A stretch of 64,000 nt of DNA, from the NCBI GenBank assembly GCA_965223905.1, contig CBDCXV010000011.1, positions 2,048,001 through 2,112,000 of the forward strand, read 5' to 3'. Made by a program: the position numbers and the translations under genes. This document shows positions 16,901-17,420 of this stretch, in pieces. Origin of the DNA: Candidatus Latescibacterota bacterium (GTDB lineage: Bacteria; Latescibacterota; UBA2968; UBA8231). Every line of letters starts with the position of its first letter. Positions within the stretch are counted from its first letter, which is position 1. The notes under the pieces are model-generated. The model saw only the letters and a program-made list of their open reading frames with translations. It was not told where the DNA came from and searched no databases.

Positions 16901-17134
16901 GGCGTAATACGTCTGAACGTTGCTACCGACAAAAACCTTGATGCGGTCTTCGGGGGTCCCCGGGACTACTTCGACAACTGCTCCCTTGACGGATGGGTTG
17001 GACGCGAGGCAAACGAGCTGGCCTGGGGCAAACTCCGCTTGGGGTCGACTGTCAGAAGTTGGTAACTGCAACTCTGCCCCTTCACGGAAGAATTTTCCTC
17101 TCTCGGCCCTGGAAAAATCATATTCCTGTTTCAT
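13985..17134 (-). CDS. SNF2/RapA-like helicase with an N-terminal BrnA-type antitoxin peptide
   Basis: [55 protein letters not shown]; begins [25 protein letters not shown]. Confidence 0.9.
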   Translation of the reverse strand: [1049 protein letters not shown]

Positions 17135-17420
17135 TGTACTGCCTTGCTTCATTGGTGGTTGCCTTGCGTGCGGAGATCAGCCGTATCCGGCCGCTTGAGG
17201 CAGTCTCTTCGCGATACGTATGACAAACGACCAGTAAACTACCTGTCCGATCCAGGCCAAGAGTGATCCACCGGGCCTCGTCCAAGCTGTGTTCCTCGTC
17301 GAACTCAGAGAGCGCTCGCGGATCCTGAAAAACGGTAGCAGCACGTTCGAACGTAATCCCATGGGCCCTGAGATTCTGTTCTGCCTTGCTGGAATCCCAT
17401 TCAAACTTATGCTGAAACAA
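17118..17420 (-). CDS. brnT: BrnT-family (DUF497) ribonuclease toxin
   Basis: FEWDSSKAEQNLRAHGITFERAATVFQDP…EEHS…EARWITLG…RIRLISARKAT..E. Confidence 0.9.
   Translation of the reverse strand: MFQHKFEWDSSKAEQNLRAHGITFERAATVFQDPRALSEFDEEHSLDEARWITLGLDRTGSLLVVCHTYREETASSGRIRLISARKATTNEARQYNETGI

Follow-up and report, generated by a model that had tools for sequence, protein, structure and literature searches.

A BrnA-type peptide at the N-terminus of an SNF2 helicase as a candidate docking tag for the RNase toxin BrnT in a Latescibacterota genome

In the window, i.e., the whole 64,000-nucleotide stretch of a Candidatus Latescibacterota genome analyzed here, the antitoxin expected behind a brnT toxin gene is present only as a 25-residue peptide fused in frame to an SNF2-family helicase. 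We consider it fairly probable that brnT and the first 25 antitoxin codons constitute a portable module, a toxin plus a docking tag, which sits on the helicase, and that the helicase-borne tag is the antitoxin of BrnT and docks this RNase. Comparison with related sequences gives good support to the peptide as the putative antitoxin. The initial annotation had proposed the fusion, and the reading frame bears it out: it opens on the minus strand at the ATG at 17134, within the last codons of brnT, and the tag continues without a stop through the linker into the helicase, so that the two open reading frames (ORFs) overlap by 17 nt. A second in-frame ATG for the helicase ORF lies at 17152. The features of the locus are summarized in Table 1.

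Table 1. Coordinates of the features of the brnT–helicase locus, numbered within the window.
Feature	Position	Strand	Details
Tiamat-like partner, C-terminal half	9394..11012	(-)	tblastn
ISL3-family insertion sequence (IS)	11013..12476	(-)	DDE_Tnp_ISL3 E 2.4e-66; splits partner gene
Tiamat-like (sacsin-type GHL ATPase) partner, N-terminal half	12477..13982	(-)	SACS E 1.7e-22; TmtA E 1.9e-55
SNF2-family helicase	13985..17134	(-)	1049 aa from ATG 17134; Pfam SNF2-rel_dom + Helicase_C
Linker TSDSRPQA, variable	17036..17059	(-)	between tag and helicase core
In-frame TTG after GAAGGGG	17069..17071	(-)	codon 22 of helicase ORF; suggested alternative start
BrnA-derived 25-residue tag	17060..17134	(-)	N-terminus of helicase ORF
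brnT+tag DNA module	17056..17425	(-)	370 nt; 85–87% identical to G141/G133 loci (L202, L203)
brnT	17118..17420	(-)	100-aa BrnT-family (DUF497, RelE-like) RNase toxin; TTG start; Pfam PF04365

The toxin gene looked intact when it was first annotated, and this assessment holds. Its product matched the Pfam BrnT_toxin model at profile positions 1–77 of 77 (E = 1.3e-26; 93.2 bits, cut-off 34.5) and has the conserved residue at all invariant columns of an alignment of 44 BrnT sequences. The NCBIfam search gave no match to a BrnT model. Four genomes from the same family contain orthologues with 89–92% identity. A consensus scan of positions 16800–17700 detected no promoter and no terminator, a result that is uninformative for this phylum, and coverage in one RNA run (X15) was limited to 17432–17692, upstream of brnT and outside both brnT and the helicase gene.

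A Pfam scan of helicase N-termini (40 and 46 residues) named no family at E values up to 10, so the assignment of the tag to BrnA rests on its alignment with canonical partners. The tag aligned with residues 1–25 of the canonical 66-aa partners of three related BrnT genes (L177–L179), which are 73–78% identical to the brnT of the window; the identity was 49–51% over a 45-aa query, in agreement with the BrnA-type N-terminus originally noted. Residues M1, E4, Y5, D6, and S8 of the tag are invariant in an alignment of 21 sequences. In these canonical partners, a ribbon-helix-helix (RHH) domain (RHH_1, residues 23–61 in that of L177, E = 0.0018) follows directly behind the tag-like N-terminus; this DNA-binding domain is absent from the tagged ORF, in which LQLP leads through the linker into the helicase core. 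By these alignments, the tag and the N-terminus of canonical BrnA-type partners are homologous, and the RHH domain of these partners is lacking. The tag is also conserved as a protein, with a codon pattern indicative of purifying selection: codons 7–25 differ from those of L173–L176 by 9–10 synonymous-only changes and 2 amino-acid changes.

The same module occurs in front of other genes. A blastn search with its own sequence found it at L202 and L203, where it heads a different gene, and the DNA homology to these loci covers 17425–17056 only, i.e., brnT and 26 codons, ending 4 nt past the LQLP codons. In four related genomes, the module precedes a gene for a PD-(D/E)XK-like protein. DNA homology to L014, a helicase locus without brnT, begins at 17136. 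We read 29 BrnT loci of the phylum for the downstream gene: in four, a PD-(D/E)XK-like protein bore the same tag; in five, Tiamat-like proteins bore a related one; in 19, small ORFs of 42–85 aa came after brnT (one of which leaves its locus); and one was degenerate. A census of the tag yielded 70 proteins of at least 80 aa, comprising 31 PD-(D/E)XK-like proteins, 27 SNF2 proteins, 4 Tiamat-like proteins, 3 Mrr-like proteins, 2 DUF4011/SF1-helicase/MTES_1575 REase proteins, and 3 small proteins. The search for further tag–SNF2 fusions, which had been proposed as a check, was productive: the fusion also occurs outside this assembly. Taken together, DNA homology and the census indicate that the tag and brnT travel as one DNA module and that the tag is found at the N-terminus of five or more unrelated families of defence-type proteins. 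As a side observation, 8 of 20 tagged helicase clusters are annotated from an internal Met, and annotation pipelines currently split or mis-start tagged genes.

Among the five tag-bearing helicase loci with a readable DNA context, brnT is kept only in the window. At L014, the helicase is tagged and brnT is reduced to its last codons, and at L012, L013, and L044, brnT is gone together with the first 11 tag codons, the helicase of the brnT-less relatives beginning at tag codon 11 or 12 (V/M-RGKFF). From the loss of brnT in these four tag-keeping relatives, it follows that the helicase system can do without BrnT.

We also analyzed what helicase homologues carry at this position. Untagged homologues begin at M(E)F(S/A)PGQ. 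In 80 genome loci of the helicase, a HEPN motif (Rx4-6H) was found at the N-terminus in 40 (HEPN_Swt1, E = 4.5e-16 in P0028), a BrnT or BrnT-like gene with an antitoxin-like head in 2, DUF6883 with a DUF4926 head in 2, and no or a short N-terminal extension in 24; the helicase of the window had no HEPN match in Pfam. The RNase module is thus an optional add-on, since many homologues have none. The helicase head at L041 matched positions 2–26 of 79 of CopG_antitoxin (E = 3.8e-6), and a full canonical pair lies 1.1 kb upstream. The BrnT-like gene at this helicase matched Pfam with E = 2.5e-7 and 31.4 bits, under the cut-off of 34.5, and was missed by a six-sequence BrnT HMM built here. When JGI metagenomes were scanned with the first 350 residues, a tag-bearing helicase was found in none of 80 loci; 69 of these were of the HEPN type, and the other 11 had HEPN remnants or short extensions or were cut off.

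The gene directly downstream of the helicase is sacsin/Tiamat-like in 77 of 80 related loci. Under our reading, the helicase and this Tiamat-like GHL ATPase would normally act together against phages as a two-gene system. The helicase also matched the PADLOC model of DrmD (PDLC02623, E = 4.6e-116), which aligns from residue 41 of the 1055-aa ORF. Its identification as DrmD of DISARM was rejected, because the NCBIfam DISARM_DrmD score of 300 bits is under the cut-off of 610 and the context is wrong: no DrmA, DrmB, or DrmC match was found among the six proteins scanned, and the neighbours are the Tiamat-like gene and the IS. This element is bounded by 23-nt terminal inverted repeats (11013–11035 and 12454–12476) with a flanking direct repeat, and the two partner halves that it separates are contiguous in intact loci such as L018 (10060–11574, then 11560–13200; tblastn). 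The listed ORFs of both halves run into the IS, that of the N-half reaching 12426 and that of the C-half starting at 11058. For the C-terminal PD-(D/E)xK nuclease of canonical Tiamat, the latter ORF (9394–11058) offered only a weak PADLOC mREase_IV match (E = 0.0031), and it had no Pfam match. Because its partner gene is split, the system in the window is probably disabled, and brnT and the tagged helicase are still intact. The place of the helicase in a two-gene system, the disruption of its partner, and the loss of brnT in relatives all extend beyond the initial annotation.

Modeling of BrnT with the helicase N-terminus had also been suggested. With the first 45 aa of the helicase, the predicted complex scored 0.46 (runs 0.51, 0.46, and 0.44), against 0.25 for the best of three controls, and falls in the weak class; the tool cautions that a prediction of this class is more often false than true if it was not already probable. 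Of 80 solved complexes, 58 attained the mark for a complex, as did 2 of 110 mismatched pairs; with scores of 0.60 or lower, only 7 of these solved complexes did so, together with both mismatches. The contacts agreed in at least 91% across runs, and the pLDDT of the partner was at least 59; the alignments used were made in this analysis. The copy of the PDB that was searched contains no BrnT–BrnA complex, so the score is unlikely to stem from model memory.

No separate brnA occurs within the window, as had been stated. Genome-wide, PF14384 matched only at C11:2042135–2042302, 5.7 kb outside the window, and at C11:1637034–1637108, and PF12441 gave one sub-threshold match on another contig. A motif scan for an M-K-x-E-Y-D-F-S start found only three real ORFs in the genome. 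The genome contains six BrnT genes, and an adjacent canonical BrnA lies beside only one of them. Behind the other five are large defence genes, namely those for the present helicase, a PtuA/PtuB pair, a Tiamat-like/helicase fusion, a second DrmD-like helicase, and an FRG-TPR protein, and each of the proteins behind these five genes is extended N-terminally of the region covered by its family model.

Based on these results, we propose the following mechanism. The module would have recombined in frame onto the N-terminus of the SNF2 helicase, and the tag would be the element that binds and neutralizes BrnT; if it neutralizes BrnT, the helicase itself is the antitoxin. The 17-nt overlap may couple translation and so yield toxin and tag in about equal amounts. 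As an RNase module bound non-covalently to the helicase, BrnT would stay inactive, occupying the site at which most homologues have a covalently fused Swt1-type HEPN RNase. Release or unmasking of BrnT would follow when the carrier becomes active, is inhibited or broken down, or ceases to be produced, and the toxin would then cleave RNA and put the infected cell into arrest. The trigger may be that of a guard, with phage-driven removal or remodeling of the helicase releasing BrnT; a docked RNase effector that stands in for the fused HEPN domain would agree with the data just as well. Release by carrier-specific allostery is less likely, because so many unrelated proteins serve as carriers.

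Ordinary toxin–antitoxin pairs stabilize islands, and the module might merely be addictive, the tag neutralizing BrnT with no sensing or killing role and the module guarding the defence locus against deletion or silencing. We regard this as unlikely, although the very diverse carriers fit a mechanism that is indifferent to carrier function, brnT and the tagged helicase have stayed intact here despite the split partner gene, and brnT is lost elsewhere while the tag stays, as expected for any toxin–antitoxin pair. For such a purpose, a canonical brnTA pair would do equally well, and neither the loss of the RHH domain nor the in-frame fusion would be needed; moreover, a frameshift behind the tag would still satisfy addiction, leaving the carrier unprotected. 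The tag also sits exactly where most homologues have a fused, motif-intact HEPN RNase, and this shared site points to a coupling of RNase and helicase at the protein level. Less probable still is an old deletion that joined a brnA remnant to the helicase, with translation from an internal start and with BrnT inactive or neutralized in trans. The TTG behind GAAGGGG, which the initial annotation had named as such a start, does exist, but it is not conserved as one, being CTA in L173–L176 and CAA in L014. The internal beginnings of the brnT-less helicases would suit this explanation, as would the lack of any promoter-like or terminator-like site in 16800–17700 that could define transcripts. A canonical BrnA with a similar N-terminus, encoded 23 kb from the locus in the same genome, might neutralize BrnT in trans; however, the BrnT beside it is only 44% identical to that of the window, which retains all invariant family residues. 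In-frame fusions to at least five protein families are left unexplained by chance deletions, and purifying selection acts on the codons of the tag in this very frame. Recurrence, purifying selection, and modularity of the fusion thus refute the chance deletion that was initially offered as an alternative.

It is very improbable that the assembly misjoined brnT and the helicase at a short repeat common to brnTA paralogues. Short public contigs do break at 17104–17136, no single public contig covers the whole stretch, and one contig of higher depth matches only 17091–17136 and then continues into unlike sequence. Against this, two contigs of run X1 (16886–17133 and 17104–17700) overlap by 30 nt with no differences, and in run X3, from another study, contigs matching 16946–17117 (0 differences) and 17104–17509 (9 differences) share 14 nt, the latter contig extending into the upstream flank of the window itself. 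The window is part of a 2.2-Mb contig, and the full tag is found on the helicase in 12 independent protein clusters.

The reading of the tag as a docking site for BrnT can be compared with known systems. The BrnT/BrnA type II toxin–antitoxin system was reportedly described in Brucella abortus by Heaton and colleagues in 2012. As in that system, the BrnT RNase gene comes first and overlaps a downstream gene with a BrnA-type N-terminus; here, in contrast, the RHH domain for DNA binding and dimerization is missing, presumably along with BrnA-mediated autoregulation, and there is no small labile antitoxin, since the 25-residue N-terminus belongs to a 1049-aa helicase. The HEPN_Swt1::SNF2 helicases encoded beside Tiamat-like GHL ATPases have a helicase core 64–77% identical to the present one (best aligned segment), an RNase module at the helicase N-terminus, and a sacsin/Tiamat-like gene downstream, whereas the RNase here is separate and presumably held by the tag rather than fused. 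A latent RNase bound to a DNA-targeting defence enzyme is also the principle of the PrrC anticodon nuclease, which is silenced by the EcoprrI restriction enzyme and freed when a phage attacks EcoprrI, and it is the guard logic of the initial annotation; PrrC binds by its own domains, whereas here a transplanted antitoxin peptide would do so. Phd-C fused to SUMO has been shown to neutralize Doc, i.e., a short neutralizing element works on a foreign carrier, and multidomain PanA antitoxins and fused CapRel likewise have a short neutralizing element (Phd-C, PAD1) on a larger, presumed sensor domain (PMC10440598); the carriers here differ from those described there in being full-size defence enzymes of several unrelated families, and the toxin is BrnT. 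BrnT-like genes lie co-directionally, just upstream of RtcR-associated CoCoNuT systems, another case of a BrnT-family gene directly ahead of a defence operon, which the authors consider consistent with induced cell death; the passage concerned does not mention an antitoxin-derived N-terminus on the downstream protein (PMC11090510). Unusual arrangements of BrnT and BrnA parts also include 33 single-chain BrnT–BrnA fusions, 31 with RHH (PMC11980606); these join the toxin to a complete antitoxin, whereas here the toxin is separate and the antitoxin N-terminus lies on a third protein. A literature search, including the texts of PMC11980606, PMC11090510, PMC10440598, and the Tiamat preprint, found no published report of defence proteins that carry a fused BrnA-type peptide, although supplementary tables may list such cases, and a word search of the Tiamat preprint found no occurrence of “BrnT.”

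The antitoxin-type heads seen in this analysis are BrnA “EYDFS,” CopG-antitoxin, DUF4415, DUF4926, and perhaps a HigA2-like head. We tentatively suggest, as a possibility that reaches further than the present locus, that the short toxin-binding heads of type II antitoxins are plug-in docking tags that, recombined in frame onto its N-terminus, would make almost any defence enzyme the antitoxin of a small RNase, and thereby an exchangeable second-layer kill switch. The carriers would include SNF2, PD-(D/E)XK, Mrr, SF1-helicase/REase, and Tiamat-like proteins and Septu PtuA, and the switch would be the non-covalent counterpart of the HEPN fusion, firing upon activation of the carrier or its inhibition or destruction by a phage. 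If the tag neutralizes BrnT, a 25-residue peptide suffices to make a large defence enzyme an antitoxin. If true, this would account for many toxin genes in defence islands that seem to have no antitoxin and for BrnT-like genes directly upstream of defence operons, and it would show how RNase kill-switch modules, whether HEPN-fused or BrnT-docked, swap between systems. It would also define a minimal, testable motif for toxin binding in a family of which no toxin–antitoxin complex has been solved, and suggest a natural way to link a toxin with a sensor protein.

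The initial annotation had read the antitoxin position as a BrnA-like peptide fused in frame to an SNF2 helicase, with no separate brnA in the window, and our analysis upheld both points. A stop-free ORF runs from the ATG at 17134, 17 nt ahead of the brnT stop on the minus strand, through the 25-residue peptide (hereafter, the tag) and an eight-residue linker (TSDSRPQA) into the helicase core, and the head aligns with canonical BrnT partners. PF14384 matched two places genome-wide, both outside the window. The PADLOC DrmD model PDLC02623 aligned to the helicase (E 4.6e-116) from residue 41 of a 1055-aa ORF; the NCBIfam DrmD model gave 300 bits, under its cut-off of 610. 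The next gene downstream encodes a sacsin/Tiamat-like GHL ATPase (SACS, E 1.7e-22; TmtA, E 1.9e-55). The G+C content is 42–46% at 6001-8000, 10001-11000, and 13001-14000 and 55–75% in the rest of the window; these low-G+C segments around the helicase system are consistent with horizontally acquired DNA.

Features of the brnT-tag-helicase locus and its surroundings in the window
Feature	Position	Strand	Description
brnT	17118-17420	-	100 aa, TTG start; Pfam BrnT_toxin E 1.3e-26, whole profile
Tag	17060-17134	-	first 25 residues of the helicase ORF
SNF2 helicase	ends at 13985	-	1049 aa; SNF2-rel_dom + Helicase_C
Tiamat-like gene	9394-13982		split by the ISL3 element into a 518-aa and a 554-aa ORF
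Tiamat-like ORF	9394-11058		C-terminal half of the gene
ISL3-family element	11013-12476		flanked by a direct repeat; terminal inverted repeats of 23 nt
Three defence-island-type genes	21581-25484		Schlafen AlbA_2 + HATPase_c_4 (436 aa); ParA-like AAA_31 ATPase (336 aa); AAA-ATPase_like + PDDEXK_9 (542 aa)

Because no Pfam family recognises the tag, its likeness to BrnA was judged from the genes downstream of related BrnT genes. In three loci (L177–L179), a BrnT 73–78% identical to that of the window is followed by a 66-aa protein that starts with a BrnA-type head and continues via IYLD... into a ribbon-helix-helix domain (RHH_1, residues 23–61, E 0.0018). Aligning 21 such N-termini showed M1, E4, Y5, D6, and S8 to be invariant. 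Since these partners share the start of the tag and then enter the RHH, the peptide is the head that canonical BrnT partners carry ahead of their RHH, with the helicase standing in place of the RHH. The locus thus has the toxin and the head in common with canonical BrnTA and, because the RHH is absent, departs from it in one defining feature. Genome-wide, PF12441 gave one match, below threshold, and a motif scan found an M-K-x-E-Y-D-F-S start at three real ORFs.

The same genome contains six BrnT genes. One is paired with a canonical 83-aa BrnA (PF14384, E 1.8e-12), and each of the other five has downstream a large defence-type ORF that is extended at its N-terminus beyond the start of the family model. 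Besides the window helicase, these are, by PADLOC, a Septu PtuA (E 1.6e-132, aligned from residue 57) followed by PtuB (E 6.4e-70; L007:1685-3796, C11:1540.7-1542.8 kb); a 1511-aa Tiamat-like/ResIII-helicase fusion (TmtA E 1.7e-46, from residue 42; L008:1776-6311), which starts with a related EYDFS tag (MKSEYDFSKGERGRFYRENAKVSLP); a second DrmD-like helicase (DrmD E 2.6e-172, from residue 118; L009:8724-12137(-)), whose DUF4415/BrnA_antitoxin-like head matched Pfam positions 1–35 weakly (E 0.041); and an FRG-TPR protein (PADLOC PDC-S15 E 1.2e-21, from residue 49; L010:1483-3172), overlapped by a weaker BrnT-family gene (53 bits). The PtuA is longer at its N-terminus by about 38 residues (MKAREFDEKFAEGTDLMHVLDISQAKR...), which gave no match in Pfam and resemble another antitoxin-head type, and the possible start of the FRG-TPR protein, MSTKEFDYQAF, is loosely like the EYDF motif; motif resemblance alone suggests that both heads are of antitoxin origin. 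Five genomes from a different family within the same class (L182–L186) also had the brnT plus EYDFS-tagged Tiamat-like/ResIII design.

A fusion unique to this assembly, considered at the outset, is contradicted by the occurrence of the tag on 70 proteins and by 12 helicase clusters with the full tag. In this census, for which the 45-residue N-terminus was the query for longer proteins and matches were sorted by continuation and Pfam content, there were 27 SNF2 helicases, 31 PD-(D/E)XK-like proteins of two subfamilies, three Mrr_cat-type proteins, two fusions of DUF4011, SF1 helicase, and MTES_1575 REase (up to 1878 aa), four Tiamat-like proteins, and three small proteins, two of which are canonical antitoxins with an LPIYLD/RHH-like continuation. 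In four relatives (L173–L176; BrnT 89–92% identical), the tag heads another protein of ∼400–540 aa with a weak Pfam PDDEXK_4 match (E 0.0016) and a PADLOC PDC-S26 match (E 4.2e-8). Over codons 7–25, the part of the tag outside the brnT overlap, 9–10 codons differed from these relatives by synonymous changes only and two by amino-acid changes. The tagged PD-(D/E)XK-like protein had 404–411 aa in L204:10318-11532(-) and L205:10297-11532(-) and 544–545 aa in two other genomes (e.g., L202:1769-3403), which may reflect variation at the C-terminus or else truncation. Homology of the window DNA to loci L202 and L203 ran from 17425 to 17056 (370 nt, 85–87%), ending 4 nt past the LQLP codons, and homology to L014, a helicase locus without brnT, began at 17136, 2 nt before the tag ATG; because of these limits, brnT and the tag form one unit and the carrier another. 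Among 29 BrnT loci of the phylum, which were the top matches to the window BrnT and not a random sample, nine were fused to large proteins, 19 had small ORFs of 42–85 aa (one runs off the locus), and one was degenerate. The recurrence of the tag on other carriers, the selection indicated by its mostly synonymous change, its linkage to brnT as one DNA unit, and the paralogous loci argue against the chance deletion fusion that the initial annotation had left open.

The helicase N-terminus varied widely. Among the best 120 of 6687 homologues with E ≤ 0.001 (7997 candidates scored), the tag was found on 20 clusters (80–90% identity), of which 12 had the full tag; the gene calls of the other eight begin at an internal MRGK. 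A precomputed PF18731 match was present in 30 of these 120, confirmed in P0028 as HEPN_Swt1 (E 4.5e-16), and most of the remainder lack an extension and start M(E)F(S/A)PGQ. Of 80 species-representative helicase loci, 40 had the HEPN Rx4H motif, 24 no or a short extension, four the BrnA tag, two a BrnT or BrnT-like gene with an antitoxin-like head (L070, L041), two a DUF6883 gene with a DUF4926 head (L039, L091), four an unknown head, and two an unclear N-terminus; two were cut by contig ends. In L070 (6535-10048), a 107-aa BrnT precedes a DrmD-like SNF2 helicase with the head DIPPLDEAFFANAKLRLP, which no Pfam family matches at E up to 10 and which looks like the same type as the L009 head; both differ from the tag, which suggests that the same fusion logic arose independently. 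In L041 (5190-10162), a BrnT-like gene of 90 aa, whose Pfam match (E 2.5e-7) falls short of the cut-off, overlaps a helicase whose head matches CopG_antitoxin positions 2–26 of 79 (E 3.8e-6); a canonical pair, comprising a weak BrnT-like match and an 87-aa CopG_antitoxin protein, lies 1.1 kb upstream, and the first ∼45 helicase residues copy the head of that antitoxin without the RHH. In L039:2693-6597 and L091:6405-10153, a DUF6883 gene (E 5e-29) precedes a helicase with an N-terminal DUF4926 (E 1.6e-26), which looks like another small-gene pair with its second member fused to the helicase. Because of this range of N-termini, we conclude that an RNase module is common but optional at this position, either as a fused HEPN or as a separate toxin gene with a fused antitoxin head. 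The unknown extensions (258–281 aa; L052, L053, L055, and L068, about 5325-10033) are in loci labelled Latescibacterota, at least two of which (L052, L068) share a conserved 281-aa upstream ORF. Other short heads were seen in P0024, P0052, P0081, P0046, P0080, and P0082, e.g., MAKKFSELTKDFSPERRRRIEAKK..., a type that we take to be HigA2-like; that of P0082 is CopG-antitoxin-like. A scan of JGI metagenomes found the tagged helicase in none of 80 loci and the HEPN type in 69.

The Tiamat-like gene was next after the helicase in 77 of the 80 species-representative loci, and in intact relatives (e.g., L018) its two halves form one uninterrupted stretch. Because an insertion element splits this partner gene in the window, the two-gene system is probably inactive there as defence.

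That the junction is an assembly artefact is very unlikely because of overlapping public contigs and the 12 full-tag clusters. No single public contig covers the whole brnT-tag-helicase stretch; short contigs from three studies carry the tag::helicase sequence with no differences (run X1, 16886-17133; X3, 16946-17117; X5, 17004-17133), and brnT with the first ten tag codons is covered by X1 17104-17700 (30-nt overlap with the former X1 contig) and X3 17104-17509 (9 differences; 14-nt overlap), the latter extending into the window's own upstream flank. X1 may be the source sample. The public contigs break at 17104-17136, a stretch common to another locus. A higher-depth public record matches 17091-17136 only (46 nt, the brnT end and tag start) and then diverges, so the junction behaves as a short repeat that paralogous loci have in common, and recombination could occur there. 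It is distinctly unlikely that the tag is a relic, with the helicase starting internally or neutralisation occurring in trans. The internal TTG (codon 22) proposed earlier as the helicase start is CTA in L173–L176 and CAA in L014, and the Shine-Dalgarno-like GAAGGGG before it is accounted for by the conserved E-G codons. At 17134, the ATG is conserved, has AAGG 7 nt upstream, and overlaps brnT, an overlap also seen in this genome's canonical paralogue; an in-frame ATG at 17152, six codons further up, may be an alternative start.

Among five tag-bearing helicase loci with DNA context read, only the window kept brnT. L014 retains only the last brnT codons (…NETGI), preceded by a gene judged 2-hydroxyacid-dehydrogenase-like from its translation and followed by an intact tag, and in L012, L013, and L044 the tag, in addition, lacks its first 11 codons (ORF start V/M-RGKFF). 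This order of loss is as expected of a toxin-antitoxin pair, in which the toxin may go first and the antitoxin cannot. As the loss of brnT from tag-bearing relatives shows, the helicase system can do without BrnT. A complex predicted for BrnT (44 alignment rows) and the 45-residue N-terminus (21 rows), from our own alignments, scored 0.46 (runs 0.51, 0.46, and 0.44; best of three controls, 0.25), with contact agreement of at least 91% and partner pLDDT of at least 59. Of 80 solved complexes, 58 reach the score mark, as do 2 of 110 mismatches; at 0.60 or under, only seven of the 80 and both mismatches reach it, so the model weakly supports binding. In the PDB copy searched, BrnT is present only by itself (7vd7, 3u97), and no BrnA relative was found.

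PrrC, held by EcoprrI, is the classical latent RNase kept by a restriction enzyme. In the literature, supplements aside, we came across no account of defence enzymes onto which an antitoxin head has been grafted, and a word search found no "BrnT" in a preprint on HEPN_Swt1::SNF2 helicases beside Tiamat-like ATPases. In the text available to us, BrnT-like genes lie directly upstream of RtcR-associated CoCoNuTs (Bell et al., PMC11090510), the only BrnT-BrnA fusions listed are single-chain ones (Gerdes, 2025; PMC11980606), and a short neutralising element was shown to function when carried by SUMO (Ernits et al., 2023; PMC10440598). Pure addiction, in which brnT and the tag would only stabilise the defence locus, is unlikely. 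The reading that we consider probable is that the tag would neutralise BrnT, and that the helicase, because it bears this neutralising head, would act through it as the antitoxin of BrnT. BrnT would then dock non-covalently on the helicase as an optional RNase module, the counterpart of the fused HEPN, in the role of either a guard or an effector, and would be freed or unmasked once the carrier is activated, inhibited, degraded, or not renewed.
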